Part shown: positions 8,915-59,950 of the stretch, one piece after another
Layout of the letters: every line of letters starts with the position of its first letter
How positions within the stretch are numbered: the stretch's first letter is position 1
Assembly: GCA_037431425.1 (NCBI GenBank)
Contig: GCA_037431425.1_4129.2
Direction: 5' to 3' (one strand)
DNA length: 64,000 bases
Source: a phage
Position numbers and translations under genes: made by a program
The notes under the pieces: generated by a model
What the model was told of the DNA's origin: nothing
Seen by the model: the letters and a program-made list of their open reading frames with translations, nothing else
The model's database searches: none

Positions 8915-8937
8915 AGGAGCCATGTGGCTCCTTTTTT
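8915..8937. terminator. bidirectional intrinsic terminator
   Basis: AGGAGCC-atgt-GGCTCCT stem-loop with A-run before and T-run after; lies between convergent genes ending at 8909 (+) and 8936 (-). Confidence 0.7.
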
Positions 8938-9400
8938 AATATCTATATGGTAAACTATTGACAAACTGTGTACCTTCACGTATACTTTCCCATAATGAGT
9001 AAAAATCTTTCATCAAGTTTGTGTTAAGCAATGTGTTTTTTGCACCAGGGTGTAATGGTTTAGGCCACGAGCCGATTTTAACCCATGCATATCCAGAGCT
9101 TTCATGATTTAATGTTGGTATAAACTCATTCTCAACTACGATAACAAATGAATAATATTTAAATTTACCATTTTTTGTACAAAATACATCAAATGGTATA
9201 ATATCAATAATATTTGGTATTGAGTCACCTAACTCTTCTTTAATTTCTCTCATAAGACCTTGTAATGGTGTTTCGTCGCGTTCAAGCTTTCCACCAACAA
9301 ATGCCCAATTGTTCGAATAGGTACTTCTTTCAGAACGTAAATTTAACATCATATGTCCGGTACTTTTTGATAAAAATATAGCACCAACAGCTTCATTCAT
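8936..9400 (-). CDS. Nudix hydrolase
   Basis: Nudix box GGKLERDETPLQGLMREIKEELG matches GX5EX7REUXEEXGU. Confidence 0.8.
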   Translation of the reverse strand: MNEAVGAIFLSKSTGHMMLNLRSERSTYSNNWAFVGGKLERDETPLQGLMREIKEELGDSIPNIIDIIPFDVFCTKNGKFKYYSFVIVVENEFIPTLNHESSGYAWVKIGSWPKPLHPGAKNTLLNTNLMKDFYSLWESIREGTQFVNSLPYRY

Positions 9401-9412
9401 AACAACACCTCC

Positions 9413-10756
9413 TTATTTGTCAGTGAAAGTTATTTTCCAATATCCTTGACGATAAACTGGCATAATACTTTTATGCCATTTAAATTTACCATTGTATCTA
9501 TAATAACCATTATCTTCGTTGTTATAAATGTAATTACGCACAGTTGATGGGTCAATTAATTCAGCACCGTCGTTGGTAATTTTAAACAAATAATTCGAAG
9601 GAATTTCAGTTTCTTTGTAAATGATGTTATGTATACTGTTATTTACATAATATTGTTCAGGTATTGCGTCAAAAAGAACTGAGCTTTTTTGGACAAATCC
9701 ATGAATAGTATAATCAACTGTATAGTTGCTACTATCAAGCTGAACGATAATTTTATTTGCATCTTCATCTTCACCATATGAAGAAATATAGCCTTTGAGT
9801 GGGTTATCTTCTTCGATTGATTGTTGAAATTTAATACCAACTTTTTTATCATCAAAATTGGGTTCCAAATATTTAAGATATTTTTCCCATGAGTAGATAC
9901 CACCATTAGGGGAAACATCGGACAATGACTGACTAACTAAAGTTAATTGATATGTATCTGGCAAATTATATAAAGAATTAGTTATCTCTTCAACTTTAAT
10001 ACATAAGTTTTTTGGTGTAAAGACATCGGTGATGATATCAGAATAGTCAGACATTTCAATGTCAAATTCATCACGTGCACCTTTAATATTAGTAGTGATT
10101 TGTTGAATCAATTTTGGTTTTTCAACAATAGCTGGTAAAGAAAACCATATTGTTGTTTCAAATGTCAATACCATAATGTCTAAATCTTGGTCAGTTCCTT
10201 GTGGAAACCCACGAGTAGAGAACTGACAATCAATCAACTCTACATCACTTAGTGATGTCCAATCCAACGGGTTTTCAGATAACTGAAGTTGAATACTCGG
10301 TGAAAATAAAGTTGAAATTTGCTCAAATAATTCCATCTTTGTTTGTATTTGAGTTACCCAGATATTCAAATCAAATGTAAATGTCCAAGGAACTGGGTTA
10401 TGTCTTACGATTTTATATTGTGAATCGAGTTCTTTTTTGTATTCATTAATGGCAGGTGATGTGTTTGTACCCATAACTAATGTTTCATTCGCATTAGAAC
10501 GTATACTTTTACGATCCAGCTTTAGTTGATTAACACTGATTGTCATAATTGGTGCAGATGGAAGAACATTTTCACTATTACCATTGATAATTGCAGCAGC
10601 CATTCTTGATATATCCGCATAACGACATGGAACCTTTTTATATTTTGGGTTCCCATCAGCATCAACACCATTTTGTACTTGAAATTCACCAAAAACTCTG
10701 ATAAGATGTTTCAGTACTCTGCGAAATTGGCCGTCATAATAATAATCTATTTTCAT
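9413..10756 (-). CDS. hypothetical protein in baseplate cluster
   Basis: 447-aa ORF; ATGA start/stop overlap with the upstream gene suggests translational coupling; no motif recognised. Confidence 0.55.
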   Translation of the reverse strand: MKIDYYYDGQFRRVLKHLIRVFGEFQVQNGVDADGNPKYKKVPCRYADISRMAAAIINGNSENVLPSAPIMTISVNQLKLDRKSIRSNANETLVMGTNTSPAINEYKKELDSQYKIVRHNPVPWTFTFDLNIWVTQIQTKMELFEQISTLFSPSIQLQLSENPLDWTSLSDVELIDCQFSTRGFPQGTDQDLDIMVLTFETTIWFSLPAIVEKPKLIQQITTNIKGARDEFDIEMSDYSDIITDVFTPKNLCIKVEEITNSLYNLPDTYQLTLVSQSLSDVSPNGGIYSWEKYLKYLEPNFDDKKVGIKFQQSIEEDNPLKGYISSYGEDEDANKIIVQLDSSNYTVDYTIHGFVQKSSVLFDAIPEQYYVNNSIHNIIYKETEIPSNYLFKITNDGAELIDPSTVRNYIYNNEDNGYYRYNGKFKWHKSIMPVYRQGYWKITFTDK

Positions 10757-12258
10757 TCTGTGTCCTTATGTATACGATAAGCTGTATTTGGTTTAACTGC
10801 GTCATGTAATGGAACTTTATTATCACTATTTACGAACTTAGTAAGTGCTAAATCTGCACCTTCCCACGGTTTTCTACCACCGTAATCAAAAATAACCCAT
10901 GAATTCTTAGTTGCATTGAATTCCCACAGTGTAACTGGTGTATAATCAGTACGGTAAAAGTAATCACCATCAACTGCATCAGTAGGGAACATGTTTCCTT
11001 CTGGAACTGTACCTCTTGCTGGTGGGATTTTAGGGCGATAATCCTGTTGTGCATCAATATTTCCATATACACAACTTGATGTGAATGGGTCATTGACGTA
11101 AGTTACTTTTGGTTCGCCCCATTTACCATCATTGTACTGAAAAATGTGTGGTTCTTTATAAAAAATACAAAAATCTTCAATATCTTTTGGTGGATTTTCA
11201 CTGGTCGTGTATTCAACATCACAATTTAACCATTTTTTAACACTTTTATCGTACTGGTATAGTGTATACCCAGTTACATCTACATCATTCTCTTTAAAGA
11301 AGAAATCACCATCCATAGGTTTCTTAGGAAAAACGGTTCCACGCTTGACTTCCAGTGAAATCCATGTATCATTATCGTATTCTTTAAGTATTGGGTATGT
11401 TTTTTTCAAAAAATACATACCACTTGCAGGTTCTTCGGGGAAATCATATCCATTAAGCATATACTTTGACAAATCAACAGTATCACGACGGTCATCATAC
11501 AAATGCTCGTTGGTATAATGAATATAAGGCACTTCATCATCAGCTTGCATAATGATACGATTCATAATATCCATTTCATTACTATAGTTACTGTTATCAG
11601 ATGTACCATCATCAGTGTTACCATTACCATTATTTGGATCATTTGGGTTATCAGGGTAATTGTTGTTTCCTAGTAAGTCGGAGTACTCAGGAGAGTCAGT
11701 CAATGGCTTTACTCGAAGTTTATAAATGTGATGTTGCCAAGTAACAGAGTAACCTTCTGCTGTACGAAACGCATCTTGGACCACATAGAAGCGATTCAGA
11801 CCAGAATCTTTACCAAGAACATCATAATCACGTAAATTTGGTAGTTCAATTACATCACCAGGCATGATTTTTCTACCCAATCGTTGCATCATGGTATTGT
11901 AGTGGATTGTAATGTCCATCGTATTGAAATTAAAGAACAAACCTGGAATTTTCAAGTCAGGTGTTGCTTCTTGAACTTGATAGACACAACTTAGTGTGAT
12001 TGCTTCAAGATTATAGTTTCTATTTGGGGTGTCTCCAAAAATTAAATCACCAATACTTGACACAACCGATCCAGAAGATGTATAATCACCGCCATATGAT
12101 AAGTCTTTGTTATCTGCAACTTGTTTTGGGCCGACATAAGCGTAAAGCCACATGTCAACACCACCAATGTTGTATTGTTCAGCAATGGCAGAGTCAATGA
12201 ACTTGTAATCATTGGTTCTACCTTTTTTCCACATTCTATATGTCATATTTGTCTCCAA
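10753..12258 (-). CDS. hypothetical protein in baseplate cluster
   Basis: 501-aa ORF; Asn/Asp/Tyr-rich; co-oriented with baseplate genes. Confidence 0.55.
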   Translation of the reverse strand: METNMTYRMWKKGRTNDYKFIDSAIAEQYNIGGVDMWLYAYVGPKQVADNKDLSYGGDYTSSGSVVSSIGDLIFGDTPNRNYNLEAITLSCVYQVQEATPDLKIPGLFFNFNTMDITIHYNTMMQRLGRKIMPGDVIELPNLRDYDVLGKDSGLNRFYVVQDAFRTAEGYSVTWQHHIYKLRVKPLTDSPEYSDLLGNNNYPDNPNDPNNGNGNTDDGTSDNSNYSNEMDIMNRIIMQADDEVPYIHYTNEHLYDDRRDTVDLSKYMLNGYDFPEEPASGMYFLKKTYPILKEYDNDTWISLEVKRGTVFPKKPMDGDFFFKENDVDVTGYTLYQYDKSVKKWLNCDVEYTTSENPPKDIEDFCIFYKEPHIFQYNDGKWGEPKVTYVNDPFTSSCVYGNIDAQQDYRPKIPPARGTVPEGNMFPTDAVDGDYFYRTDYTPVTLWEFNATKNSWVIFDYGGRKPWEGADLALTKFVNSDNKVPLHDAVKPNTAYRIHKDTE

Positions 12259-12288
12259 AATAATTCGGGTATATCTTTATTTACCATG

Positions 12289-12316
12289 TAGACAAACCAT
12301 AAGAATGTGATATAAT
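12289..12316 (+). promoter_or_regulatory. sigma70-type promoter for ClpA-like gene (TAGACA-16-TGaTATAAT)
   Basis: -10 TATAAT at 12311-12316 with extended TG at 12308-12309; -35-like TAGACA at 12289-12294; AGGAG SD 6 nt before ATG 12355. Confidence 0.45.
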
Positions 12317-12354
12317 GTTTGTTAATTAGAGTGACGTGAATCACAGGAGAATAC

Positions 12355-14643
12355 ATGAATCTTACTCAATTGTTCAAAAAAAGCGACGAACTAGCAACAT
12401 CCCTAGGTCATACTTTCTTGACTATTGACCATGTGAGTGCTACAGTACTGACTATTGATAGTATCAAGGGCGTGTTCGAAGAAATGAACATCGATGCTGA
12501 CAAGTTGCATAGTCGCCTGATGAACTATCTTAAAAATACAACGGTTCCAAGTGCACCAAAAAGCACACTCGATGAAGATGCCAACCGCACTTCACTTCTG
12601 GTGAACCGTGTTGTACATGAGCTTTCGAAAAAATCAGTCATTGAACAACTAAAAAGTGATGATTTTTCGATTGATGCATATTTTGTTCTATTTGAATGTT
12701 TATCATTCCCAAACACTGCACTTGAAGCTGCTTTGAAAGAAGAAGGTGTTAGCTGTACCGAAGCTGCTCGTGCACTACAGAAACACGTTGAGGCACTGGA
12801 AAAGGGTATCAACCTTCAAAGTATCAATGACGAACCTACTGGAGATAAAAAAGTGGCTCAACCACAGCAATCATCTAAACAAAAAGGTTTAGCAGACTAT
12901 ACAACAAACCTAACGGCCCTTGCAAAAGAAGGCAAACTAGACCCAATGATTGGTCGCCAAAAAGAGCTATCTACATTGATTGAGACTCTTGCTCGCAAAA
13001 CCAAAAAGAATGCCATCCTGACTGGTGAAGCTGGTGTTGGTAAAACACAAATCATCGACGGTCTTGCACAAGCAATTGCTGATGGTAATGTACCAGAGCA
13101 CTTAAAAGATGTTGAAATTCTTTCCCTAAATGTTGGTGCGTTGACTGCTGGGACTAAGTATCGTGGCGAATTTGAGGAACGTATCGATAATTTACTAAAA
13201 GAACTAAAGAAACGTGAAAACACAATTGTTTTCATTGATGAAATCCATATTATGGTCGGGGCAGGTTCTGCAAGCAACGGTTCAATGGACATGAGCAATA
13301 TGCTTAAACCAGCACTATCACGTGGTGAGATTCGTGTAATTGGTGCAACAACATACGAAGAATATCGTAAAAACATCGAGAAAGATAGTGCATTGACTCG
13401 TCGTTTTATGAAAATTGATGTTGTTGAACCGTCAATCGATGAAACTCGTGAAATTGTGAACGGTCTTAAATCAACTTATGAAAAATTCCATAACGTTGAG
13501 TTTACAAAAGATGCAATGGATGCAGTAATTTCTCTCAGTGAGAAGTTCTTGAAAAATAAACACTTCCCAGATAAAGCAATTGACCTAATGGATGCTGCTG
13601 CTGCGAAAGTGCGTTCACGTGATAATAATAGTAAGCTAATTACAGAGAATTTGATTCAAGAAGTTGTTGCTGGTATTGCTAACTTGGATATCAACGTGGT
13701 TGCATGTACAGAAAGTGAACGTATGCGTAATCTACCAGATGCACTACGTTCACGTGTTTACGGACAAGAAGAAGCGATTCAAAAATTGGTTGATAATGTA
13801 ATGGTTGCTCGTGCTGGTCTACGTGATAAGTCGAGTGTTCAAGGTGCTTTTATGTTTGTTGGTCCGTCAGGTACTGGCAAAACAGAAATTACAAAAGCAT
13901 TAGCTGAAGCAACGGGTTCAGAGCTTGTTCGTTTTGATATGTCTGAGTTTTCGCAAGAACATACTGTTTCAAAACTAATTGGTTCCCCTCCAGGTTATGT
14001 TGGTCACGATTCTGGTAATGGTTTGCTATTGGATAAGATTGAGCAGTTTCCTAATGCCATTCTACTACTCGATGAAATCGAGAAAGCAGATCGTAAAGTA
14101 CTACTAACCTTCCTACAGGTTCTGGACGAAGGACGTTTGACTGGATCACAAGGTAAAACTGTTTACTTCAATAACGTAACTGTTATTATGACAACCAACC
14201 TTGGTGCGGCTGATTCAACAAAGCGTAGTATTGGGATGAGTGGTAGTGAAAGTGCACAAGACAAGGCAATTAAAGCATTCTTACCACCAGAATTCATTAA
14301 CCGTATTGACAGTATTGTTACGTTTAATGAACTAAGTAGTGAAGCTATTGACAGTATCATTGATAAATTCATGGGAAGTTTGAATGAACAAGTTAAACAT
14401 CGCAACGTAAAAGTTTCACTAACGAAAGCTGCACGTGGATGGCTTGCAAAAAATGGTGTTCAGGTAGGTATGGGTGCACGACCAATGAAACGTACAATTG
14501 AACAAAACATTCGCGTACCACTAGCGAAGGAAATGTTGTGTGGTTCACTGGTAAATGGTGGTAACATTACATTTGATGTTATCAATGACAAACTTGGTAT
14601 TAAACCAAAACGTACTAAAGCAGTTGAAAAAACACTAGCTTAA
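12355..14643 (+). CDS. clpA: ClpA-like double-AAA+ ATPase/unfoldase (Clp N-domain + D1 + D2)
   Basis: D1 Walker A GEAGVGKTQ and Walker B IVFIDEIH; D2 Walker A GPSGTGKTE and Walker B ILLLDEIE; SIGM loop at the position of the ClpA IGL ClpP-docking tripeptide; 762 aa with no long coiled-coil middle domain, so ClpA-like rather than ClpB-like. Confidence 0.85.
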   Translation: MNLTQLFKKSDELATSLGHTFLTIDHVSATVLTIDSIKGVFEEMNIDADKLHSRLMNYLKNTTVPSAPKSTLDEDANRTSLLVNRVVHELSKKSVIEQLKSDDFSIDAYFVLFECLSFPNTALEAALKEEGVSCTEAARALQKHVEALEKGINLQSINDEPTGDKKVAQPQQSSKQKGLADYTTNLTALAKEGKLDPMIGRQKELSTLIETLARKTKKNAILTGEAGVGKTQIIDGLAQAIADGNVPEHLKDVEILSLNVGALTAGTKYRGEFEERIDNLLKELKKRENTIVFIDEIHIMVGAGSASNGSMDMSNMLKPALSRGEIRVIGATTYEEYRKNIEKDSALTRRFMKIDVVEPSIDETREIVNGLKSTYEKFHNVEFTKDAMDAVISLSEKFLKNKHFPDKAIDLMDAAAAKVRSRDNNSKLITENLIQEVVAGIANLDINVVACTESERMRNLPDALRSRVYGQEEAIQKLVDNVMVARAGLRDKSSVQGAFMFVGPSGTGKTEITKALAEATGSELVRFDMSEFSQEHTVSKLIGSPPGYVGHDSGNGLLLDKIEQFPNAILLLDEIEKADRKVLLTFLQVLDEGRLTGSQGKTVYFNNVTVIMTTNLGAADSTKRSIGMSGSESAQDKAIKAFLPPEFINRIDSIVTFNELSSEAIDSIIDKFMGSLNEQVKHRNVKVSLTKAARGWLAKNGVQVGMGARPMKRTIEQNIRVPLAKEMLCGSLVNGGNITFDVINDKLGIKPKRTKAVEKTLA

Positions 14644-14651
14644 AAAACAAA

Positions 14652-14677
14652 AGGAGAGCATTTTGCTCTCCTTTTTA
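14652..14677. terminator. bidirectional intrinsic terminator
   Basis: GGAGAGC-atttt-GCTCTCC stem with A-run upstream and T-run downstream, between convergent ClpA-like (+) and giant (-) genes. Confidence 0.7.
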
Positions 14678-17600
14678 TTACTTAACTATTAATATTTTTT
14701 GAATATCATTACCACGAACTCGTAGACTGTTAGTATACACAGAAAGGTCTATTGTATAACTATTTTGAGTATAACGTTTAAACTTATCATAACCGCCCAA
14801 ATTAATTCCGTTGAAAGAATATGTAGTATCATGTTTGAAATCGTGTTCTGCACTGTACATTACTCCACGGAGTAAGTTGTTTGTATTTCTAACTTCAACT
14901 TTTTCATATCCAATCGATATAATGTCACTCTTGTTAGCAGCGGAGCCTGATAACACATTATTTCTAACATTATAATGGCTTACGGAAAGAGGTTGTGCTA
15001 CATAAGTTGTGTTTTCTTCACTAATGGTTGTTATGTTAGTGATGGTAGCGTCAGCCACATCAATATACATACTATCAACCATTGGATATTCATACACCCA
15101 CACACCTTCATTATTTTTTGTCGGTTTGATATCTTTCGCATCATATTCAATCACGTTAATTTCTAAACAATCCGGCATTTTAGTTCTTACTAATTCACTA
15201 AGAACACCTTCCCCTGTAATTGGTAGATTATAACCGTTGTCTATAGTAATACCATCATCATTAAATATTTCATTTGATACAACCCAAACATCAACATCAT
15301 CAGGTGTTACTCCGTCATTATACTTACCACCATTTAAAGTAGTATCATAAAAAACGTCATAATTAATCACATCAATGGTGTAATTTCTGTTTTGCTCATA
15401 TAATTTAATATCACCCTTGGTAAATTCTGGGTCAGCAAATGTTCTAACACGAACAATGTTCAATGCAAGATGTTGTACTGGCTGATTCAGTTGTCCAAGT
15501 GTGATGTTATCATATCGAAGAACATTACCAGAACTATCAACCAACTCAATTGTTTCTTTTCCTGTAGTTCTTACAGTGAATAGAATAGGAGTTGTATTAT
15601 GTTTGATATTAGACACACGTAATATGGTTTCCCATGTACGATTTTGATATCGAATAAAATCTTCACCATCCGGCGTGAAAATCATCACCTTATCACCATC
15701 AGATAAGTCACTGTCAACGATTTCAGCCTCAGTTAAGCTATTAATAGAACGTACACGATAGAAATATTTTTCTTCAAACGGTGATGCCGTTTTATTAATA
15801 TCATGTTCAATCTTAGCATATGAAGGAATACTAACAATTGCTTCTGTATGTTTATATGGGTTGATAATTGCCATACCCTCGGTTTTATATCTGCTATTAT
15901 TACGCAATTGCACTAGTGATTCAGTATCAAATCCATAACCATCAACAGTGAATCTAATATGCCCAACTGCACGACTAGCTGGATTTATTTCAGATATATC
16001 GATAATATAAGGATCAACTTCGTCATCTTTAACTTCCCATTTGATAGCTGAAGTTTGTGATTCTAATGCAAGGTTGTCAAATGCATTCATATCATTGAAG
16101 AACTTAGCTTCAGCAATACTATCAATTATATATTGATAATCCGAATACATAGGGTTATTTTGATCTTGTGGTAAATCATCTAGATTTATTTCAGCAAGTT
16201 TAATCATTTCACCATTAGTAATGAAATAATCTTCCATGAAATCATCAATACTTTTATCATCTGGTATACTTTGGTATTCACCATTGATATTTAAGTAGAC
16301 ATGTTTTCTTGGCATCATAGTAATAGCATAGATATCAATAGGTGTTTTTGAAAGAATTTCTTCTGCTTTTTCATACATATCAGTAGAGTCTTTATCAAAC
16401 AACCCTCTCATGGCTGCCAGTACATGGACCGCATCGGAATAGAAACGTGTATCACCACCAATTTCATCATAACGATAAACATATACACCGTATTCAACTT
16501 CAAGTTTCACTTTAATATCATGTTCAGATGCATCTGGATATTTTTCTGTAATAAAAGAAATATATTTTTCATATAATTCTTTACTTATTTCAAAATATCC
16601 ATAGTTATAATCATTACTTGAAGAAAAACCTAATGGTAGTCTAGTACTTGGGTTATCATTATAAACCAAACCACTAAATCCACAGCCAACCTCATCATGA
16701 ATCTTATCATCACTGATATCTTTATAAAGTTTCAAACGGTTTGCTAATGTATTGTACTGAACATAGTGTCGAAGGTCAGTAAACATTTCATTATGCGTTG
16801 ATTCGTTATAAATGCGTTCAAGTGTAGCAGTAAATTCATCAGTTGCTTCTAAATCATCAGCATGTTCTTTATACCACTGGTTTACACCATTTGCAGTTCC
16901 TAGTGTTACATCTAATTCTGGATAGTACGTTTGTAATAGATACGCATTAACCAAGTCAAATGATTGTTCATTATACACAGGGTAAGAATATATATAACGT
17001 TGTAATTCATAGGTATTAACAGAATCTTTTTCATTTGATTGATACTTATTATTAACACTAATCAACTCATTAATGTTTGCCAAATCTTTATTCGGTTTAC
17101 ATTGAATATTATCATAATGCATAATAATATCAATTTCTTGAAATCTTCTATTTGGTGCAATAAAATCACTAGGCAGAGAACCTACTTTCTCCCATTTTTT
17201 AGTGGTTTCATTATATTGAGCGTACTCATAATCCCAAATATCCTTTTCAGTTTTAACCCACGAACCATCAACAAAAATATACCCATTAGGATCTAAATCA
17301 TTACAAAGACCTTTGATTAAGTCATCATCAGACGTTTTTTGTTCTATCTGTGAACGGATTTTTGTACGATATGGTTTCACCTCTTCAAAGTACTCAACAA
17401 TTTGGTTAATCAAATTATCATTTGAATAGTTTTGTACCAAAGATTGTTCCAAACCAACAATATAGATATAGGATGTTTTAAATACCCAATCAACAACACC
17501 CTGTTCTACGTGTACATATTTGACCATATCAAAAACAATTTCACTTTGGTGTAAATCGAAAGAATTTTTTAGCAAAGCAAGTGCTTTTCTAATATTAATT

Positions 17601-20600
17601 TCACGATTACTAAGTGAACCGTCCTCATTATGAACATTATAATCTACATAAAACAAATCGTTAAGCTCAATAGTACTACGTTGTCGCCCAATAGCTTTCC
17701 AATAAATTGAATCACGTGATTGAGATTTGATATATAAAGTCCAAATGTTTTCACTATCTGTGACTCTAATTATATCACCAACTTGATAGTTTTTAGCATT
17801 TGCTTCTTCTAAACTTATCTCTTGGATGTAAGCAGTTTTGCTATCATACCCAACATCATACCAATCTGCATAAGACCAGTATTGAGTCATATCTAATGAT
17901 GTTCCGAGTGATTCAACATAATCCGATTGCTTAATCATTTTATGTTGTCCTTCACCTTTATTTTCTAAAGTTATAGTAACAACACTACCTGCATTAGCTG
18001 GACTATTCATTAACTGAATATATCCGTTTTCATCGAAGTGAATAAAATAAACAGCACTAGTTGATAATGGAGTCGGTAGATAACCGCTAGAACTTAAAAT
18101 AACAGCGTCATTTTCTTTAAATTTATCCTTTTCAACTGCAATTACAAGTTCATTATTATAAGTTAATACACGGAACGAAACCTCATTAGGGTTAACTTCT
18201 GTAGTTTTAACATTAAACACATCTTCCATAACAACACTATTAGTAGTTATGTTTTGTGATCTATAATAATTATTTGCACTTTCTACAAAGTTTCTACGTG
18301 CCTCTATTATATTCTGGAACCAAGTTTTATTAGAGCCTAAACCAGTGCCAACTTCTGGATATAATAAATCTACAACCTTACCTGACTTCGTAGTTTCTTG
18401 ACCAATTAGAGAGTTCCACATAGAGTCCCAAATTAGTGGGTTAAAATTGTAACTTTCACCCTCTTTACAAAGTTGATATTGATCATGTTTAACAACTTCT
18501 GTATTGTCCATATAGTAAGAAATAGTCAAAACACTAGTATCATCATTAACTTCAAACTGCATATTACTAAGAATAAAAGAGTTTTCATTAATTGGTGCGA
18601 ACCAAGGAATGTTCAACTGTGATGGATCTTTAATAATACGTGCAATGTCAGTACATGATTTTGTTCTGGTATGAATAGGTGGTACATAAATTGTATCACG
18701 TACCCAGAAATAGTATTTTGTTACATAACTGTCAGTGGAGCTATCATATTCCAAAAATGTACTATAATTATCTTCAAGTGCTGTTCCACTTGGAAGATAC
18801 ATATTATTATTTTTGTTTTTCTTAGCAACATCTTTACAGTACTTATCCCAGTTATATGGTTCTACTGGTGAACAAACCCATTCCAACACATCAATAGTAC
18901 TATGTGGCAACAAACGACCCCAGTTGTAACGTTTATATTCATTGGTTGCGTCAATATCAACATTTCCATCTGCATCATAAATGGCACGAGTATAATCCAA
19001 ATAAAAAGCGGTGCTAGTGTTCCACCATACTTGACCAACTTTTTCAGCACCCCACGCCTGAACCAATTCGCCATTACTATTATATTGAGCAGGGTCGATT
19101 GGTGAAGTATATGTTACGTTTTGCATTGCTGCACCAGGAATAACACCATTAATTGGGTCATAAACATTTAGATATAATGCAGTAATGTTTGTACGTTCAT
19201 CATATGTAGTTGGACGTTCAAACAAAGTACTTTGTGGTGCTTTAAAACTATATTTTTTATCAATATATGCTTGACGCTCTTCAGTACTCACAAAACGCGA
19301 AACATAACGATACAAACGAGGGCGTGTATCTGGGTCAGTAAATTCGATATTAATTGAAGTATCAAATGGAACCACCATAACTTTGGAATCATCCCCAGCA
19401 GTATAATATTGACTTTCTACTGTTAAAGTATCTGGCATAAAGTTAGTTTCGTCCACAAAATAATAGTAATCACCATCTTCAAGAGGGATATCATCAGATA
19501 GAGTTACTTTACAGAATTTCTCAGCGTAAACATCTGTGGTTTCGATTGGTGTAATAGAAACCATTTTAACATTAGTGTCAATTAATTCAAAAATGTTCCA
19601 TAACCCATTTCCATCTTTGAACATCCATACTGATTCAGGATTTTCACCTTTACCATTGATATACAACATACGGTCATTGAATGCAGTACTGAAATCTTTC
19701 GTAGTATAAGATACTTCATCTAATGTAACTGGACCAATATCAGGCAGTTGGATGTGTTCACTTCTACCACTACGCATTGGGAAAGAGAATTTACCATTTG
19801 GACGAGTAATCCATTGTGGGTCTTTTCCTTGTTCACCAAAGAATACAATATTGTTTCCATTGCCATTTGATGTTGCATTTTCATCAAAAGACATCATTTG
19901 TGGCTGCTGCTTAAATTGGTCATTAATCAATTTAAATTGAAGGTTTTTCTTTCCATCGATGTTACCATATGTACCAACTTTAAACGCCCATTCTTGTAAT
20001 GCTTTATATTCATCAGTATCATAGGATTTAGAAACACGAAGAACACGTTCTAAAACTTGGTTTGTACCTTTGTCATGAATAAATCCTTTATAGAAATCAA
20101 CACGACTTACATCACTACTAATCATACGTTGTAGATAATCACGAGATTGATAACCAATCAAATGGCTAGACAATTCTTGTAATTGTACATCGCTAACGGG
20201 ATGTTCATTGTCATAGTAATGTTGAAAATCTGTTACTAGAGTTTCAAATGATGGTATTGTACCAGATTCCAAAATAATAAAACCAGGTGCTTGTAATCTA
20301 CCAGTCCATGAACCAGTAATGTACCCATACATTTTAATTAGTTCCTGGATAGAACCATAAGTTGGTTGATAGATATAATCACCAAAAATAGTCTTATCAT
20401 CAAATATAACAGCATGTTCATATGAACACAAACTTAAACGGATTAATGCAATACGCTTATTAGAATCGGTTGTTCTAACAGTGAATATATTACCAATACG
20501 TGAAGTTTCGATTTCATATTGACGAATACCTTGGTTATTATCATCAAGCAATGACCACACACCACCATTATTTTGTGTAATAGACTGTACTGAACCAAAA

Positions 20601-23600
20601 TCCGAACCAAACTTAGCATTTGCAGCACTTGGTGTACAAGAGATAAATTCGCCAGTTACCAGAGGACTCTGACTCCATATCACAAAATCTTTAGCAATAG
20701 TGTGCCAATCTTGCTGAATACCATCTTGATTAACATCTTCGAAAATCCAGCCATGTTCTTTAAGATACTCACCATATCCACAAATAAAAGTGTATACTTC
20801 TTGATAACTATTGAAAATAGTCCCATATTCAATAGAAGCCTCAGACTTCCATTCATTATAATGAACAATATTACGGTTTTCCAATTTAAGAGTTACTTTT
20901 CTTCCATTTTTTACTGGAAGTTTATATTTAAATTTCGCACCAACCAAATCATATCCATCAATTTGATATGCACTACCATTCCATGTAATTTTGATGGCAC
21001 TCATCTGTTCATCGCGAATGTTATTCGAACGCACCAGACCAATCGTTTGGTTTTCTTGTGAAATAAGACCAAATGATTTAGCGTTGAATGTTAATTGATC
21101 TGCTTTAGTAAAGCCACCAATTTTATGTCCCACATTTACGTAAGACGAACGTACAACATCTCCATATTTTGTAGTAATATTTTTATTTTGATACATCAAA
21201 TAATCACTAACAAACATTTGATATCCAATTGTTCTTGTGTTATCTTCACCATGAACAGTTGTGTTTTTATCAAAATTCACACGATTGCGGGTATCCCCGT
21301 ACAGAAATTGTTCACCAGTGGTGATAATTTCTTTCAAATTGTCATTACGGGTATCCCAATAATAGTTGGCAAATTGTGCAGGTTTAGCTTTATACAAAAG
21401 TAACATTTGGTCATATGCAAACAATGTGGTGTTCATATACGTAAATTCCATATCACCCATGTCGCCATACGCCCAAGGTTCTGCTCGGTGAACTAAAGAT
21501 CCAGACACTAATCCTAAAACTTCAGGAGCAATATACTCAACCACACAAATATCTACACCGGATGATGTTTTATTTCCAGTTTTAGTAATTTTAAATGGTT
21601 GTACACCAAATCTTTTATATTTGTCATACTGACCACGGCGGTCGCCATATAAAATTGTCCCAGTACTACTATCGCCGATTGTATCATTTACATCCCAAAG
21701 TCCACTAGGAACCAAATCACCTTGTTCATCAGTTACAAGTGCCTCATATACATAAACTACATCACCATCACGTTCACCAACTTGGACAGCGGTTGGTTCA
21801 TACTCTTGGTTCCACCAAGTAGGACGTTGTGTAAACCCAAACATTTCCCATGGATGTGTAGCAGGGCGATATGTACCATATTGATCAGTATAGATTGCAC
21901 GCCATGAACCACGAGCAGGAATTTCAGTACTTTTACCATCAACAACATAATAGGTTCCAGTATAGTTCCATGTTCTCCAGTTATTAGGATCATAATCATG
22001 TGTGCTATTACTAATACCATTAGATGCAGTGAAGTTAATATAACCACGTAATAGAAGTGTTTGTTTTTCTTCTGCACTATATTCAGTTTTTGTAAAATAT
22101 GGCGTAGGGAAAAGATCATCACTATTCAATACAGGGACATAATCAACATCTTTGAATTTATTGTCAATACTATTGAAAATTCTATTTTCAAGTTCATATA
22201 CAACATCATCCATTTTATCAACACCATTGATAACACGGTATGCTTTAGAAATAATACCAGTATGGCTGATATTATAATAGCTAGGTTTACTACCAGCAGT
22301 TAGGAATGTTGCTTTCTCAGGAACGTATGCTTGTAGAATACCTAAAAACTGTGGAGTTGGTGGTATAAATGCACGAATAAGACCAGATGTACTACCCACA
22401 TTGTCATAATAGAATGGGAATGAACTATCACGACCCATATTAATAGTTGCCAAAATAGAATCAACGATGTTAGCTGCACTATTTTGTAAAAAGTTAGTTG
22501 GGTTTTCATTGTACATTCTAAGCATTTGTGTATTAAATTTATTAATGAATCTGAAATATTCAGATTGCATAAACATAGTTGCTTCAAATAAATCAATATC
22601 TTCATTTGCAGTATGAGCCATCAATGGGAGCATAGAAGCTTCATTTTGAATAATTTTAGTTCCTACTCCATTATTCACTAATCCCTTAGCTAAACGTTCT
22701 TCATAATCGTTGAAGTCATCAGCATAACCACTAGTGATATTCTGTTGAATAATATCCTGAAAATGAAGAGTATAGTCTCCTTGATTAATATATATAATAT
22801 TGGAGTTATATGGGTTATTTTGTAAGTTAATTGGAACTTCATATGCACCTAATTCTTTATCAGGTGTTACAGTACTGCTATAAGTTCTAATTTGAATAAC
22901 AGAATCATCATCCAATTCAACACTGTTATCGATTGTGATACTTTGCACTTGACCTTTTAATACATTCTTGGTATATTTGGAGATATTAACACCATCAACA
23001 ACAACTTCAATAATATCAGAGTCATTGTCTAAAACTTTTTGTGCCAATTCAAAAGTATGGTCATATTTTAAAACCTGAATACCATCACCACTAATTTGAT
23101 GCCAGTCCAAATATGTTTCACGTTCAGCTTTATAGTACTGATATGTTTTATCAACTTCGATGACATATGCATACATACCCTCGACTGGTTCTTTAAACAG
23201 TTCCATATCATAAACAGAACTAAAGACTCGATACATATCAGTACGTTTGACTTGAGGTGTCTGTTTTACAAATTGTTTAGAGAATTCTTTTGAACGCACC
23301 CAATCAGTTTGAAGATTCATTTTATTATTTTCATCAATGATGTTATAATAATACAAACCACCGATTTCAACTTCAACACCAAGATGGTCATATGTATAAC
23401 GTTGTGATTGTAAAAAGTTTTCATAAGTGTAATAGTTATAATCACCAAGTTCAATGTTATACCCATATACACTATCAGCCGCGTAGTTATAGTTTATTTT
23501 AAATCCAAATAATGGTGAACCTTTAAATGTACTGGATGGGTACGTGGTGCTGTTATCTAGTTTGATTCCATTACGATCATAAAGTTGGAATTGAGGAAAG

Positions 23601-24661
23601 ACGTTAACACTTGGCTTCGCCTGTGCACGAACCCATAATGTTCCATTCCAATACATAGAATTATTGCCGTACTCATTTCCTTTTGTGACCAAAACTACGT
23701 CACCATTTTGTGGTTCACCACTTGGACGGGACTCAGTTTCTTCATTTGGATCTAGTGCTAAGCCATAAACGCGTGTACCATCTTGCATTTTTTTAACATA
23801 CACTTTATAAATTCTATTGTTTTCACCATCATTACCAATACTGGTGAATAGAATACGCATACCATCTTGTGGAATAATACCATCAATGCGAATACCGCTA
23901 TTGACATCTTTTTGAATAATATCTTCAGGTTTGATACTATCAGAAAAAAGTTCAACTGTTCCACGGAATTTTGTACCGTAGTTAATTAGCTCGATATTTT
24001 TATTATATTCGATAATTGGTGCACGAGCACGAATAAAACGAGAATCTTGCATTAGCTCTTCAGTCAAGATAGAACCGTCTTCTAGTGTTTCACCTAAAGT
24101 ATACCAAAAGTTTTGCAAAGACCATGTATTACCATTAAGTGCTCCACGTTCCATTACAATGTAATCAGGTGTAATGATATTATAAGAGTTTTTGGTATCC
24201 CAAAGATACGAACTAAAATTGTTCATTTTATTTGGGTTAATTGCAGGAGTCCATGCATAAAACTTACCGTTAAATAAACGACTTTCATTATCGGTTAGTG
24301 CTCCGTAATGACTCATGTATCCAACAAGATCATCATAAAATTGAATTGAACGAATTGTTGAATCATCATTTTTAGAGACATAAGCAGTGGACAACTGATA
24401 TAGTTGACGTGCAACAGAACTTTCATGCAAGAAGATATTACCAGCGGCAGCCGGAGAACCCATGTCACCAATATAACCGTCAACCAATTCGTTTTCAGCC
24501 GGATTAAACCATTGTTGAATAACATCATCACTGACTTTTTGAATATCTTCTAAGCCTTGCATCCACTCAGGCAATCTTTTGATAAAAAGCTTTTTCTGTA
24601 CTGCTTCAGCCATCTGTGTAGGTTGAAACTTAAAATTATTAGTCATTTTTCTGGACTCCAT
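14678..24661 (-). CDS. giant virion protein (3327 aa), in the position of T4 baseplate gene 7
   Basis: Single uninterrupted 9984-nt ORF; immediately downstream of the gp6-like gene; preceded by ATAAATAA late-type motif; Asn/Tyr/Asp-rich, no catalytic motif recognised by eye. Confidence 0.75.
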   Translation of the reverse strand: MESRKMTNNFKFQPTQMAEAVQKKLFIKRLPEWMQGLEDIQKVSDDVIQQWFNPAENELVDGYIGDMGSPAAAGNIFLHESSVARQLYQLSTAYVSKNDDSTIRSIQFYDDLVGYMSHYGALTDNESRLFNGKFYAWTPAINPNKMNNFSSYLWDTKNSYNIITPDYIVMERGALNGNTWSLQNFWYTLGETLEDGSILTEELMQDSRFIRARAPIIEYNKNIELINYGTKFRGTVELFSDSIKPEDIIQKDVNSGIRIDGIIPQDGMRILFTSIGNDGENNRIYKVYVKKMQDGTRVYGLALDPNEETESRPSGEPQNGDVVLVTKGNEYGNNSMYWNGTLWVRAQAKPSVNVFPQFQLYDRNGIKLDNSTTYPSSTFKGSPLFGFKINYNYAADSVYGYNIELGDYNYYTYENFLQSQRYTYDHLGVEVEIGGLYYYNIIDENNKMNLQTDWVRSKEFSKQFVKQTPQVKRTDMYRVFSSVYDMELFKEPVEGMYAYVIEVDKTYQYYKAERETYLDWHQISGDGIQVLKYDHTFELAQKVLDNDSDIIEVVVDGVNISKYTKNVLKGQVQSITIDNSVELDDDSVIQIRTYSSTVTPDKELGAYEVPINLQNNPYNSNIIYINQGDYTLHFQDIIQQNITSGYADDFNDYEERLAKGLVNNGVGTKIIQNEASMLPLMAHTANEDIDLFEATMFMQSEYFRFINKFNTQMLRMYNENPTNFLQNSAANIVDSILATINMGRDSSFPFYYDNVGSTSGLIRAFIPPTPQFLGILQAYVPEKATFLTAGSKPSYYNISHTGIISKAYRVINGVDKMDDVVYELENRIFNSIDNKFKDVDYVPVLNSDDLFPTPYFTKTEYSAEEKQTLLLRGYINFTASNGISNSTHDYDPNNWRTWNYTGTYYVVDGKSTEIPARGSWRAIYTDQYGTYRPATHPWEMFGFTQRPTWWNQEYEPTAVQVGERDGDVVYVYEALVTDEQGDLVPSGLWDVNDTIGDSSTGTILYGDRRGQYDKYKRFGVQPFKITKTGNKTSSGVDICVVEYIAPEVLGLVSGSLVHRAEPWAYGDMGDMEFTYMNTTLFAYDQMLLLYKAKPAQFANYYWDTRNDNLKEIITTGEQFLYGDTRNRVNFDKNTTVHGEDNTRTIGYQMFVSDYLMYQNKNITTKYGDVVRSSYVNVGHKIGGFTKADQLTFNAKSFGLISQENQTIGLVRSNNIRDEQMSAIKITWNGSAYQIDGYDLVGAKFKYKLPVKNGRKVTLKLENRNIVHYNEWKSEASIEYGTIFNSYQEVYTFICGYGEYLKEHGWIFEDVNQDGIQQDWHTIAKDFVIWSQSPLVTGEFISCTPSAANAKFGSDFGSVQSITQNNGGVWSLLDDNNQGIRQYEIETSRIGNIFTVRTTDSNKRIALIRLSLCSYEHAVIFDDKTIFGDYIYQPTYGSIQELIKMYGYITGSWTGRLQAPGFIILESGTIPSFETLVTDFQHYYDNEHPVSDVQLQELSSHLIGYQSRDYLQRMISSDVSRVDFYKGFIHDKGTNQVLERVLRVSKSYDTDEYKALQEWAFKVGTYGNIDGKKNLQFKLINDQFKQQPQMMSFDENATSNGNGNNIVFFGEQGKDPQWITRPNGKFSFPMRSGRSEHIQLPDIGPVTLDEVSYTTKDFSTAFNDRMLYINGKGENPESVWMFKDGNGLWNIFELIDTNVKMVSITPIETTDVYAEKFCKVTLSDDIPLEDGDYYYFVDETNFMPDTLTVESQYYTAGDDSKVMVVPFDTSINIEFTDPDTRPRLYRYVSRFVSTEERQAYIDKKYSFKAPQSTLFERPTTYDERTNITALYLNVYDPINGVIPGAAMQNVTYTSPIDPAQYNSNGELVQAWGAEKVGQVWWNTSTAFYLDYTRAIYDADGNVDIDATNEYKRYNWGRLLPHSTIDVLEWVCSPVEPYNWDKYCKDVAKKNKNNNMYLPSGTALEDNYSTFLEYDSSTDSYVTKYYFWVRDTIYVPPIHTRTKSCTDIARIIKDPSQLNIPWFAPINENSFILSNMQFEVNDDTSVLTISYYMDNTEVVKHDQYQLCKEGESYNFNPLIWDSMWNSLIGQETTKSGKVVDLLYPEVGTGLGSNKTWFQNIIEARRNFVESANNYYRSQNITTNSVVMEDVFNVKTTEVNPNEVSFRVLTYNNELVIAVEKDKFKENDAVILSSSGYLPTPLSTSAVYFIHFDENGYIQLMNSPANAGSVVTITLENKGEGQHKMIKQSDYVESLGTSLDMTQYWSYADWYDVGYDSKTAYIQEISLEEANAKNYQVGDIIRVTDSENIWTLYIKSQSRDSIYWKAIGRQRSTIELNDLFYVDYNVHNEDGSLSNREINIRKALALLKNSFDLHQSEIVFDMVKYVHVEQGVVDWVFKTSYIYIVGLEQSLVQNYSNDNLINQIVEYFEEVKPYRTKIRSQIEQKTSDDDLIKGLCNDLDPNGYIFVDGSWVKTEKDIWDYEYAQYNETTKKWEKVGSLPSDFIAPNRRFQEIDIIMHYDNIQCKPNKDLANINELISVNNKYQSNEKDSVNTYELQRYIYSYPVYNEQSFDLVNAYLLQTYYPELDVTLGTANGVNQWYKEHADDLEATDEFTATLERIYNESTHNEMFTDLRHYVQYNTLANRLKLYKDISDDKIHDEVGCGFSGLVYNDNPSTRLPLGFSSSNDYNYGYFEISKELYEKYISFITEKYPDASEHDIKVKLEVEYGVYVYRYDEIGGDTRFYSDAVHVLAAMRGLFDKDSTDMYEKAEEILSKTPIDIYAITMMPRKHVYLNINGEYQSIPDDKSIDDFMEDYFITNGEMIKLAEINLDDLPQDQNNPMYSDYQYIIDSIAEAKFFNDMNAFDNLALESQTSAIKWEVKDDEVDPYIIDISEINPASRAVGHIRFTVDGYGFDTESLVQLRNNSRYKTEGMAIINPYKHTEAIVSIPSYAKIEHDINKTASPFEEKYFYRVRSINSLTEAEIVDSDLSDGDKVMIFTPDGEDFIRYQNRTWETILRVSNIKHNTTPILFTVRTTGKETIELVDSSGNVLRYDNITLGQLNQPVQHLALNIVRVRTFADPEFTKGDIKLYEQNRNYTIDVINYDVFYDTTLNGGKYNDGVTPDDVDVWVVSNEIFNDDGITIDNGYNLPITGEGVLSELVRTKMPDCLEINVIEYDAKDIKPTKNNEGVWVYEYPMVDSMYIDVADATITNITTISEENTTYVAQPLSVSHYNVRNNVLSGSAANKSDIISIGYEKVEVRNTNNLLRGVMYSAEHDFKHDTTYSFNGINLGGYDKFKRYTQNSYTIDLSVYTNSLRVRGNDIQKILIVK

Positions 24662-24727: not shown

Positions 24728-27700
24728 TTAAGAACCGATATTAATATTACTTTTAGCTAATGAGTTAACTATTTGAACATTTTCAACCGATGCAGTACTC
24801 AAGAATATTTGGTCCGAGCGTGAAGGTATTTCAAACAAAGAACCAAATTTGGAATTCGGATTTTGTGCAACTATAACAATTGTACTAATATGTCTTCCTA
24901 GTTGGGAATGTATATAAGTACATAAATCGGTATAATAGAAACTTTCACCAAAATCCCAGTTATCAACATTAAAATATTCATTCGTTAATGCTATCACATT
25001 TTGACGAATTTCATCATCACTCATCGTGCTATTTGGTAGCTTAACAACTTTAAAATCAGCTTTATAATCTTCCGCAGCACTGTTCCCAAATAATGGTAGA
25101 TACTCTGCACTATGCCAGATAATACTATCACTGATGACTATTTTTTGTTCGACATCTTTGAACATATTTTTCAATTCAACTGATGTTGGAGGCTTCGGCA
25201 TACTTCCAACTGCATTATTTTTTAACCACACATCAACTTCAGTTTTGTATGAGTTTGTTAGTACATACATATCAATTAGGTTTGTTCTACTAGGATCAAT
25301 ACGGTTATCATCAGGTGCATAATGTTTCCAATGGAAATCTATACTGGTACGAGCATTCGTCTTAACCGTATATTGCGATGTAACATCTTTATAACCATAA
25401 TAATCCAACTTCTGATTCTCATCAGCATTAGTACCCATGTTATTAATTGAACGATAAAACGCAAGTTCAGGACTAATAGTTCCGGTATCATCGGAATATG
25501 TCAAATTACTGATTAATTGCCCCAAACGATCATTGTTATTACCAACAGTTTGTTCAATAAAATAATATTTACCATCATATTTAAAACACACTAAGAATCC
25601 AGAGCCTTTACTATACAATCCACTCAATGTGTTAGAACGAATTGCATTATTTCGTACAAATTCGGTTCTTTTATATGTATTAGGTTCAGCTAATGCTTGT
25701 TCCATCGTATAAGACCATGACGTATCCAGTAGTGAGAATGTATCATTTGGTAATGACAGTACTGAAATTGTAAAATCATTATTTTCCTTGAATATCAATA
25801 TACCACCGTATTTTAATGCATCAGAACCTGACCATTCTGGAACAATATCTTTAAATTGATTCGGTTCCAACGGTATACCATTACTATCTACTTTTCTAGA
25901 GGTGACAATAATACGAGAACCATCCAGATATCCATTTTCTTGCTGTATTGTGTCATAAATTTGAAAATCTATATTACTTGTTAGACCTGAGTTACTTGTG
26001 CTTGTTGTGTTGGATGATAAAATTTCAATTTTATCACTTTGAACTGTACCAGAACTAATATCAGTTATTTTTTTGGATGAAACGAAATAGAATTTGACTT
26101 TATTACCACCAACAAATATATATTCAATACCATTTGCATCAAATTCCCAGGTTTCTGCTGTATATTTAACGTTTATTACAACTAAAACTTCGTGACCATT
26201 GTAAACAATAGTATCATCATTTGTACTAATTTCTACTGGAACCCATGAAGTTGTTTCTTTATCATGAACAATAACAAAATCAGTTTTTTTATCAAGCATT
26301 GCAGAAATAGACTGAACCTCAACCGAATCAAATCTTGTTCTATATGGTAATATATAATCAATTGCTTGCATTTTACTAGAAACTGGCGTACTTAATACAT
26401 AAAACCCATTATCTAAAACACTAATAACACTTGCCCATATAGTTGTTGTAGAGTTGGAGAACTTAATTAAAGTGCCAACCTGATACGAATTATATACTGT
26501 CCCAGATGATCCCATGATTCTTCCATATGTATTGGTAGTATAATTCGAATTATAAACAGGTGTCCATGATTGTTGAAGTTCAATTCCAATAGTATTTGGT
26601 GGATATGCTTGATAACGTTGTATCACAGCATTTTCACCAATTAGTGGTTGAATATTGTCAATTACGATACTGGCATTTGTTTTTGTAGTTGGTAGTAATA
26701 AAGATTTATTAAATTTAGTATTTTCTTTATATAATGCACCATCATCACTAAAAACATCAGTATTTTGATATTTTCCAGTAGGGTCATTAATATCAATGAA
26801 TCGAGACTGTCCACTATAAATTCTATTAATAGCTTTTGACTTAAGTACAGTGTTACCTAAACTGAGTGGAGCAATATTATAATCTTCACCATTAACAAAA
26901 CGGTTTTGTGTGTAATACATTTGTGGTGCTCGTGCTTTAATTTGCTCAATAGTCTCAGCACTTTGTGCACGATCTGATTCGTATTGTAATGAAAAGCGTA
27001 CATCTAGTGTGCTTGATTCATAACTGGATTGTGTTTTAGTACGATACGTATATTTTACACTTTTATTTTGAATTTCTGACGTTTTGATGTTATATGTTTT
27101 ACCATTACTAACACGATACCACACACGGAATGTACCACGCGGAACAACACCACTTCTGGAATCTGGATATTTAATTGTTATTTGATCTTTATCACGAGTT
27201 GTAACTGCAAAAATTGTTTTAAGCTGGCGATTGACCGTGTTGTATGCAATACTTTCCATGGATGGAACTTTTGTCCATTTGGTACGAACAATACCATCTT
27301 CATTGATTTCTTGTACCCAAACATCAGTTTCATTTATGTTATCAACGTTTACCTCTTGTATTCTATTTTCTTCACGAATATTATATTGGTAATCTTGATA
27401 TGTCAATGTTCCTTGGATAAAATACACAAAAAAACCAGTATTTGGTGAACTGAATCCATTACCATCATTTTGGTACACAATATATTTTTGCTCTTGTGGT
27501 TCTGGATGTCTCTCTTCAACACCAACAGATGTAATGTCAGGGTTAACCACTTCAAATGTCATTGATTCACCATTAACAGTTGCAACAAATGGTATACTTG
27601 GAGCACTCATAGGAATAGTATTCATTCGATAAAGCTGACGTGACACCCCATTGACATCAATACGTTTAACTGGATTACCGAACTGATTAGTACTAACAAA

Positions 27701-59742: not shown

Positions 59743-59949
59743 ATGCCATTATATACATATCGTTGTGAAAAAGAAGAATGCAAGCATAGCATTGAAAAAA
59801 TTGTTAAAATTGCAAATCGTGATGAACCTCATGATTGTCCTAAATGTAATGGTGAAAAAACTATGAAGTTGGAAGTGTTCACTCCAGGTGATAAAGGTGC
59901 TAATCTTTATTTTCGTGGAAAATGGTTTGCAAATACTGGGGGCTACTAA
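59743..59949 (+). CDS. FmdB-family zinc-ribbon protein
   Basis: MPLYTYRCEKEEC...CPKC: N-terminal YxYRC plus two CxxC pairs typical of FmdB-type zinc ribbons; 68 aa. Confidence 0.55.
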   Translation: MPLYTYRCEKEECKHSIEKIVKIANRDEPHDCPKCNGEKTMKLEVFTPGDKGANLYFRGKWFANTGGY

Positions 59950-59950
59950 T

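Follow-up and report, generated by a model that had tools for sequence, protein, structure and literature searches.

At positions 12,289 to 14,677 of a 64,000-nucleotide stretch of phage DNA (GenBank assembly GCA_037431425.1, contig GCA_037431425.1_4129.2; the whole stretch is called the window here), a plus-strand gene encodes a ClpA-like AAA+ unfoldase. An earlier note, made from the letters alone, had described the product as a ClpA-type double ring with a Clp_N-like N-terminus and no ClpB-type middle domain; profile and HMMER searches agree with this description and set the protein apart from ClpB and ClpC. The window is collinear over its whole length with Escherichia phage ph0011 (OP557969, 348 kb) at 98.7-99.6% identity, and the unfoldase is 99.9% identical to the ph0011 protein WAE77172. 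ph0011 is an Asteriusvirus of the 121Q/PBECO4 group, a Rak2-like jumbo phage; the note had set the gene against the T4 gene set, which is the wrong frame, since in Asteriusvirus the ClpA-like gene is a conserved and annotated member of the gene set. In the ClpA region, identity to 121Q, PBECO4, phAPEC6, G17 and further members of the group is about 88.7%, and in this group the unfoldase is annotated as a Clp ATP-binding subunit or "ClpA-like protein" (121Q gp581, phAPEC6 gp246c). According to the Atu_ph07 paper, most Rak2-like phages have a highly conserved ClpA (PMC6102473). The unfoldase gene is already known, and the window represents a further isolate of the same gene. Its features are as follows.

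12345..12349, plus strand: Shine-Dalgarno sequence AGGAG, 5 nucleotides ahead of the ATG, read from the sequence
12355..14643, plus strand: coding sequence of the ClpA-like AAA+ unfoldase, 762 amino acids plus stop
12355..12804, plus strand: N-domain, Clp_N-like and all-helical, residues 1-150, followed by a low-confidence linker at residues ~151-185
12910..13674, plus strand: D1 AAA+ module, residues ~186-440, Pfam AAA and AAA_lid_9
13024-13047, plus strand: D1 Walker A, GEAGVGKT, residues 224-231
13156-13164, plus strand: D1 KYR pore-1 loop, K268-Y269-R270
13225-13248, plus strand: D1 Walker B, IVFIDEIH, residues 291-298
13702..14574, plus strand: D2 AAA+ module and D2-small domain, residues ~450-740, Pfam AAA_2 and ClpB_D2-small
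13861-13887, plus strand: D2 Walker A, GPSGTGKTE, residues 503-511
13993-14004, plus strand: D2 GYVG pore-1 loop, G547-Y548-V549-G550
14059-14082, plus strand: D2 Walker B, ILLLDEIE, residues 569-576
14230..14238, plus strand: tripeptide I626-G627-M628, aligned with I617-G618-L619 in the ClpP-docking loop of E. coli ClpA

The motifs quoted in the earlier note (GEAGVGKT, IVFIDEIH, GPSGTGKTE, ILLLDEIE and KRSIGMSG) are all present, and D2 also contains R650 and a GARP sensor-2 motif (R709). HMMER aligns residues 17-744 as a single stretch with residues 20-737 of E. coli ClpA (E = 2e-178). ClpB, ClpC, ClpV and Hsp104 each give two separate matching stretches in the HMMER and profile searches, and the phage unfoldase therefore lacks a middle domain; its match to TIGR03346 breaks at residue ~421 (model position ~398), with no insertion. 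The Pfam scan yielded AAA_2 at 168.8 bits and ClpB_D2-small at 74.5 bits. The top NCBIfam model is that of ClpA, TIGR02639 (754.7 bits, residues 3-740 on model positions 5-732), and PHROG 4871 is matched at 1024.9 bits (residues 2-756 on profile positions 11-761 of 764); with these two scores, the open reading frame is not a chance one. The equivalog cut-offs of the NCBIfam ClpA models, which are 993 bits for TIGR02639 and 1350 bits for NF008263, are not reached by the phage protein (754.7 and 646.6 bits, respectively), which, judged by these scores, is ClpA-like and not a ClpA equivalog. When the N-terminal 172 residues were scanned alone, only one Clp_N repeat was detected, at residues 11-59 (23.5 bits; Pfam cut-off 20.7 bits).

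A single-chain structure prediction with AlphaFold2 (AF2) has a mean predicted local distance difference test score (pLDDT) of 78.6; the N-domain is helical, with a pLDDT of 52-65 in its second half, and the linker at residues 156-176 falls below 50. Superposed on the ClpA chains of ClpAP structures obtained by cryo-electron microscopy, the model gives template modelling (TM) scores of 0.82-0.88 when normalised to the ClpA chain, or 0.60-0.67 when normalised to the AF2 model itself, at 46-47% identity. The gene is confirmed as a real, intact ClpA-type double-ring AAA+ unfoldase.

A database search returned 112 cluster representatives of a phage clade, at 52-91% identity and at least 805 bits, below which there is a sharp gap to bacterial ClpA (at most 596 bits, ~41% identity); this gap argues for long vertical inheritance under purifying selection. 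The Walker A lysine and the Walker B Asp-Glu of both rings are invariant in 112/112 representatives, as are the GYVG tyrosine, the D2 arginine finger and the GARP sensor-2 motif, while the KYR pore-1 tyrosine is Tyr in 105/112 and Phe in the other 7/112. The N-domain is the folded part with the most variation across the clade. From this pattern of conservation, the unfoldase is judged to be a functional ATPase and translocase, maintained by purifying selection. With its two ATPase rings and its two tyrosine pore loops intact, it is expected to act like ClpA, as a hexameric double ring that would grip, unfold and translocate polypeptides.

The reference ClpP-docking tripeptide follows the pattern [LIV]-G-[FL], on a D2 loop that is flexible. 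In the ClpAP of E. coli, a pocket of ClpP receives I617-G618-L619-I620; one subunit contributes L48, F49, A52 and F82 to this pocket, and the adjacent subunit contributes L23, Y60, Y62, I90, M92, F112, L114 and L189 (bioRxiv 10.1101/820209). The earlier note had aligned the phage KRSIGMSG (residues 623-630) with the ClpA docking position, and HMMER indeed sets the phage SIGM on the SIGL of ClpA. The phage loop is 2-4 residues shorter, and S629 follows IGM where E. coli ClpA has I620; in the AF2 model, residues 624-630 have a pLDDT below 50, as expected of a flexible loop. In ClpX, the changes I268L, F270L and V274A, as well as changes in loop length, severely impair ClpP binding (PMC7112951). 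The fit of the phage loop to E. coli ClpP is doubtful. Across the clade, the tripeptide has 25 variants (e.g., IGM, MGM, IGV, IGA, LGM, LGL, MSM, IGG, MNM), the entropy of its third residue is at the 93rd percentile of the D2 columns and the hydrophobic-Gly-hydrophobic pattern is kept in 75 of the 112 members, while [IM]-G-F is found in 8/8 bacterial hits.

The phage has candidate partners of its own, which lie outside the window in ph0011.

ph0011 84239-84267, outside the window: ClpP promoter, GTAGACAAA-N9-TGTGATATAAT
ph0011 84302..84997, outside the window: ClpP homologue, 231 amino acids, Pfam CLP_protease 142.6 bits
ph0011 259249..259794, outside the window: ClpS-like protein, found with the GAP32 ClpS-like protein as the query

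The ph0011 ClpP contains the motifs GYAASMG, CHQV and DRD, with an intact Ser-His-Asp triad and a conserved N-terminal gating segment. The triad is kept in all 67 representatives of the phage-clade ClpP, and one fragment has no Asp column. A tblastn search found the phage ClpP in the same phages as the ClpA-like gene, namely Asteriusvirus, the RaK2 group, GAP32, the Erwinia/Serratia/Yersinia phages, SE_PL, PA5oct and Atu_ph07. In an ungapped and unambiguous alignment, the phage ClpP pocket differs from that of E. coli by Y60T, F82S, F112L, L114G, A52S, L48V and F49W, with Y62 and M92 retained; across the clade, position 82 is S, N, C or Y, and position 114 is G throughout the enterobacterial members. 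The enterobacterial Rak2-like ClpP also has a conserved C-terminal extension of ~17 residues, NEKGQYLVKRRGGVEEWV, on the strand that lines the pocket, an extension missing from the bacterial, PA5oct and Atu_ph07 proteins. An apparent loss of ClpP Arg192 (Pro/Ala/Glu/Asp in the MAFFT alignment) was dropped, since a one-residue shift, GPRN versus THRN, restores Arg/Lys. The tripeptide of the unfoldase and the pocket of ClpP shift together, graded along the lineages:

Atu_ph07: tripeptide IGF; ClpP pocket Y60, F82, L114 (bacterial-like)
PA5oct: tripeptide IGF; ClpP pocket S60, Y82, S114 (intermediate)
Enterobacterial clade: tripeptides IGM, IGV, LGM, VGM, MNM; ClpP pocket T/S/V60, S/N/C/Y82, G114

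With E. coli ClpS as the tblastn query, no match was found in Asteriusvirus. The GAP32 ClpS-like protein, used as the query, retrieved a ClpS-like protein of 177-181 residues in 34/34 Asteriusvirus records, and in 72 records overall. The ph0011 and GAP32 proteins are 37.6% identical (E = 8e-33), and the N-degron pocket residues are partly kept in the former; the ClpS genes of PA5oct and Atu_ph07 are shorter and more bacterial. The ClpS-like gene begins 13 nucleotides after a gene for an IF-3-like translation initiation factor (ph0011 258732-259794), and the same pairing is seen in GAP32. The three genes co-occur across the Rak2-like clade, and the numbers of phage records with ClpA/ClpP/ClpS agree closely within each genus: 33/34/34 for Escherichia phages, 11/10/10 for Klebsiella, 10/8/8 for Salmonella, 8/8/8 for Erwinia and 11/11/11 for Pseudomonas.

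The control of the unfoldase gene also connects it to ClpP. The note had given the gene a promoter of its own with an extended -10, which the promoter scan recovered, and had placed it antisense to the surrounding genes, as it is, both neighbours being on the minus strand.

12289..12316, plus strand: ClpA promoter, TAGACA-16-TATAAT with TG upstream, 11/12 matches in the promoter scan
12288..12296, plus strand: -35 block GTAGACAAA, which includes TAGACA at 12289-12294; the same 9-mer lies upstream of the ph0011 ClpP
12305..12316, plus strand: extended -10 ATGTGATATAAT (TGn + TATAAT), with a predicted transcription start near 12323
14649..14675, both strands: bidirectional intrinsic terminator with a 12-bp stem and T-runs on both strands

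The insulation by bidirectional terminators that the note had proposed holds at the downstream end, where the terminator is common to ClpA and the convergent giant gene and is annotated at the same place in G17. Upstream, the interval 12259-12354 is a divergent promoter region in which no convincing terminator was found; a candidate at 12190-12219 was rejected because of its location inside the neighbouring open reading frame and its mere 3 G-C pairs. The block AATGTGnTATAATGT in front of ClpA is kept as far as GAP32, the remaining spacer having diverged, and the window contains 3 exact copies of TGTGNTATAAT versus 0.65 expected. The promoter belongs to a family, TGrGACA-N12-GTGnTATAAT, that has 5 members in the window, all on the plus strand:

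-10 end at 12316, plus strand: ClpA
-10 end at 35279, plus strand: operon with gp47/46-like recombination nuclease genes
-10 end at 40076, plus strand: small-ORF region
-10 end at 58878, plus strand: operon with a GroES-like co-chaperonin
-10 end at 62468, plus strand: 5'-3' exonuclease

In the 172 kb of ph0011 that were examined, there are 10 promoters of the ClpA class, and the arrangement GTAGACAAA-N9-TGTGATATAAT occurs in only 2 of these 10, those of ClpA and ClpP. The ClpP gene of GAP32 has no promoter of its own and starts 1 nucleotide after the preceding gene, and the shared ClpA/ClpP promoter is therefore shown for Asteriusvirus only. The IF3-like/ClpS operon of ph0011 has a perfect TTGACA-17-TATAAT promoter.

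In phage CBB, "divergent RpoD-like" promoters were described before DNA-synthesis genes and an ATAAATA-type late motif before structural genes (PMC5259590). The promoter family of the window probably corresponds to the middle class of CBB and GAP32 promoters that was named "divergent RpoD-like", and ATAAATA-like motifs precede structural genes in the window too. In PA5oct, phage production is sensitive to rifampicin and sigma-70-like promoters are used (PMC7318152); the temporal class of the PA5oct ClpA and ClpP was sought in the RNA-sequencing paper, whose main text does not mention Clp. A sigma-70-type promoter for ClpA is supported. Since the family is shared with genes for DNA metabolism and chaperones, ClpA is probably expressed in the early or middle phase and not in the late one, in co-ordination with ClpP.

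Taken together, the gene probably encodes the unfoldase component of a ClpAP(S) protease that is the phage's own and belongs to the early or middle class, a reading that we hold with moderate confidence. ClpA would be transcribed alone from the sigma-70-type extended -10 promoter, with transcription ending at the shared bidirectional terminator. The flexible D2 loop carrying I626-G627-M628 would most likely dock on the phage's own ClpP tetradecamer, and the diverged Clp_N-type N-domain would be the probable landing site for its ClpS-like protein. The physical partnership of the three proteins is something that we infer.

Several points weigh against such a protease. The clpA, clpP and clpS genes form no operon and are spread over ~175 kb, clpP lying ~86 kb upstream of clpA in the genome and the clpS-like gene ~88 kb downstream, and the presence of the latter two is deduced from the near-identical ph0011, outside the window. 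The ph0011 ClpS-like protein scores 20.2 bits, which is under the Pfam ClpS cut-off of 23, and its sole link to ClpS is the GAP32 orthologue (41.8 bits). The joint trend of tripeptide and pocket comprises seven lineages, with phylogeny as a confounding factor. The tripeptide itself is poorly conserved in the clade, where IGG, IGA, MNM and MSM occur, and it could be that the unfoldase does not need to dock to any ClpP. Mass-spectrometry signals for ClpP, but not for ClpA, were obtained from CBB and PA5oct virions, and ClpP might have a separate role. Moreover, the literature searched yielded no experiment on any phage ClpA, ClpP or ClpS.

A further step, which we put forward only tentatively, is that the enterobacterial Rak2-like phages possess a private Clp protease, made up of their own ClpA and ClpP and an enlarged ClpS-like adaptor, with no cross-reaction with that of the host. 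Its interface would have diverged jointly in the tripeptide (IGM, IGV, LGM or MNM) and in ClpP, through the pocket residues T60, S/N82 and G114 and the 17-residue C-terminal tail. Turned on along with the replication genes, the protease would degrade host or phage proteins chosen by the phage, for example N-degron substrates or defence proteins. With such a protease, the phage ClpP would not be lost to the host ClpX or ClpA, nor would the phage ClpA depend on the host ClpP.

Another explanation, which seems rather unlikely, is that the unfoldase is a ClpP-independent remodelling chaperone for very large tail or baseplate proteins in virion assembly, such as the 3327-residue product of the neighbouring gene. 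ClpA alone remodels RepA. The genes next to the unfoldase are these:

8936..9400, minus strand: NUDIX/MutT hydrolase, directly downstream of the tail sheath stabiliser/completion gene
9413..10756, minus strand: tail sheath stabiliser/completion protein, beyond the gene for the 501-residue protein
10753..12258, minus strand: structural protein of 501 residues, the divergent upstream neighbour, in the same order in GAP32
14678..24661, minus strand: virion protein of 3327 residues (382 kDa), function unassigned, the convergent downstream neighbour
24728..28189, minus strand: baseplate wedge gene, beyond the gene for the 3327-residue protein

The flanking genes of the unfoldase are identical in ph0011, G17, phAPEC6 and GAP32; the GAP32 ClpA is 61% identical and has the same antisense arrangement as in the window, and the GAP32 counterpart of the giant protein has 3341 residues. 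The NUDIX/MutT gene sits within the tail-gene block, at the same place in GAP32. In PA5oct, ClpA (42% identical) lies between a DnaJ-like gene and the gene for a 2236-residue tail protein, gp184, and in Atu_ph07, ClpA comes after a DnaJ gene, with a tail fibre gene ~1.6 kb downstream. The DnaJ-like gene is immediately upstream of ClpA and on the same strand in both phages (PA5oct, stretch positions 14284-17202; Atu_ph07, 2097-5274), and in Asteriusvirus and GAP32, ClpA has no DnaJ-like gene beside it. In favour of a chaperone are the giant tail or baseplate neighbour in Asteriusvirus, GAP32 and PA5oct, the nearby tail fibre gene of Atu_ph07 and the DnaJ-like genes; the weak constraint on the tripeptide would fit a role that is independent of docking, and Iyer et al., who list ClpA among the AAA+ chaperones of jumbo phages, suggested a role in virion assembly (PMC7824862).

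However, gene order within one phage lineage is expected to be conserved even if there is no functional link. BLASTP found no significant similarity between the giant protein of the window and the 2236-residue tail protein of PA5oct, and the shared adjacency to a giant protein cannot therefore be called orthologous. The promoter class is that of DNA-metabolism genes and not the ATAAATA type of structural genes, the loop is present in every member of the clade, and ClpP and ClpS co-occur with ClpA. In phAPEC6, mass spectrometry of the virion detected gp245 (382 kDa, the orthologue of the 3327-residue protein) and the neighbour gp248, both of which are listed in a table from which the ClpA orthologue gp246c is absent. 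The note's suggestion that the unfoldase might help to fold or assemble the adjacent giant protein has the conserved gene order alone in its favour; the absence of the unfoldase from the phAPEC6 virion proteome is counted here as a point for the phage protease.

The earlier note had instead proposed docking onto the host ClpP, by which the unfoldase, via IGM, would redirect host proteolysis; as considered here, it would use the host ClpP either alone or besides the phage ClpP. The host ClpP is already there when the phage unfoldase is first made, E. coli ClpP accepts both the IGF of ClpX and the IGL of ClpA, and the phage loop, in exact alignment with IGL, keeps the hydrophobic-Gly-hydrophobic pattern, as do 75 of the 112 clade members. 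This proposal is weakened by the phage's own ClpP, which is co-conserved with the unfoldase and has a near-identical promoter, and by its ClpS-like gene. Met replaces Leu/Phe and Ser replaces I620 in a loop that is variable and 2-4 residues shorter, and the ClpX-ClpP interface does not tolerate conservative changes in the tripeptide or changes in loop length (PMC7112951). Moreover, the tripeptide has drifted to IGG, IGA and MNM in relatives that infect enterobacteria, although the enterobacterial ClpP is highly conserved. Docking on the host ClpP is, in our estimate, improbable.

Least of all is the gene likely to be a decaying or functionless host-derived passenger, a possibility suggested by the duplication of a host function and by a G+C content at 12001-14000 (0.387) slightly above that of the adjoining intervals, and one that is effectively refuted because the frame is intact, the catalytic residues are invariant across a clade diverged to 52% identity, the clade scores at least 805 bits within itself versus at most 596 bits to bacteria, and the promoter is conserved.

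Other features of the genome can be added. A GroES-like co-chaperonin is encoded in the window, after a small CxxC zinc-ribbon protein, and some structural genes are preceded, 20-50 nucleotides upstream, by the T4-late-like TATAAATA:

29206-29213, minus strand: TATAAATA
47826-47833, plus strand: TATAAATA
49035-49042, plus strand: TATAAATA
59888..60250, plus strand: GroES-like 10-kDa co-chaperonin

A small DnaJ zinc-finger-like protein is encoded at ph0011 79377..79604; together, ClpA, ClpP, the ClpS-like protein, the GroES-like protein and the DnaJ zinc-finger-like protein make up a sizeable proteostasis gene set of the phage. The genes downstream of TATAAATA include the major capsid protein gene at 49088, and an AGTACT-like sequence often adjoins it. 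The motif is not enriched over the window (6 matches versus 10.3 expected), and its position just upstream of some structural genes is suggestive. The window fails to align with ph0011 only at 1729-1874 (~146 versus ~107 nucleotides), an interval that lies within the gene for the long tail fibre proximal subunit and may reflect variation related to host range.

The unfoldase gene, which is annotated in dozens of Asteriusvirus and Rak2-like genomes, adds nothing new alone. What may be worth pursuing is the view of it as a system, with its three ClpAPS parts, a promoter shared by ClpA and ClpP, and a docking interface that is non-bacterial on both sides. If the protease were insulated from that of the host, it would constitute an orthogonal AAA+ protease pair of natural origin, of use in the engineering of degradation systems, and it would reveal how protein turnover is handled by a virus of 350 kb as it takes over its host.

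Among the closest known systems is E. coli ClpA, the unfoldase of ClpAP(S) (PDB 1KSF/1R6B, 6W1Z, 7UIV). The two proteins have similar lengths (758 versus 762 residues) and the same order of N-domain, D1, D2 and D2-small domain with no middle domain; they share the KYR and GYVG pore loops, the phage protein has its putative docking loop at the same position, and their D1-D2 parts are 46-47% identical. They differ in that the phage N-domain is strongly diverged, with only the first Clp_N repeat detected, in that the phage has IGM-Ser in a shorter loop instead of IGL-Ile, and in that the phage protein is encoded by a virus that has its own diverged ClpP and ClpS-like genes. ClpB/Hsp104 and ClpC/ClpE likewise have two AAA+ rings and the Clp_N, AAA_2 and D2-small domains; unlike the phage protein, they have a coiled-coil middle domain, and ClpB has no ClpP-docking loop. 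The Rak2-like members of PHROG 4871 (95% protein identity to the 121Q/PBECO4/phAPEC6 group) have the same gene order, antisense orientation, promoter and terminator, with no substantive difference. The genomes of the Agrobacterium jumbo phage Atu_ph07 and the Pseudomonas phage PA5oct likewise carry ClpA, ClpP and ClpS, but with the bacterial-type IGF, a more bacterial ClpP pocket, a short ClpS and a DnaJ-like gene beside ClpA, whereas the enterobacterial clade is set apart by its remodelled interface, the 17-residue extension of ClpP and a ClpS-like protein of 177-181 residues.

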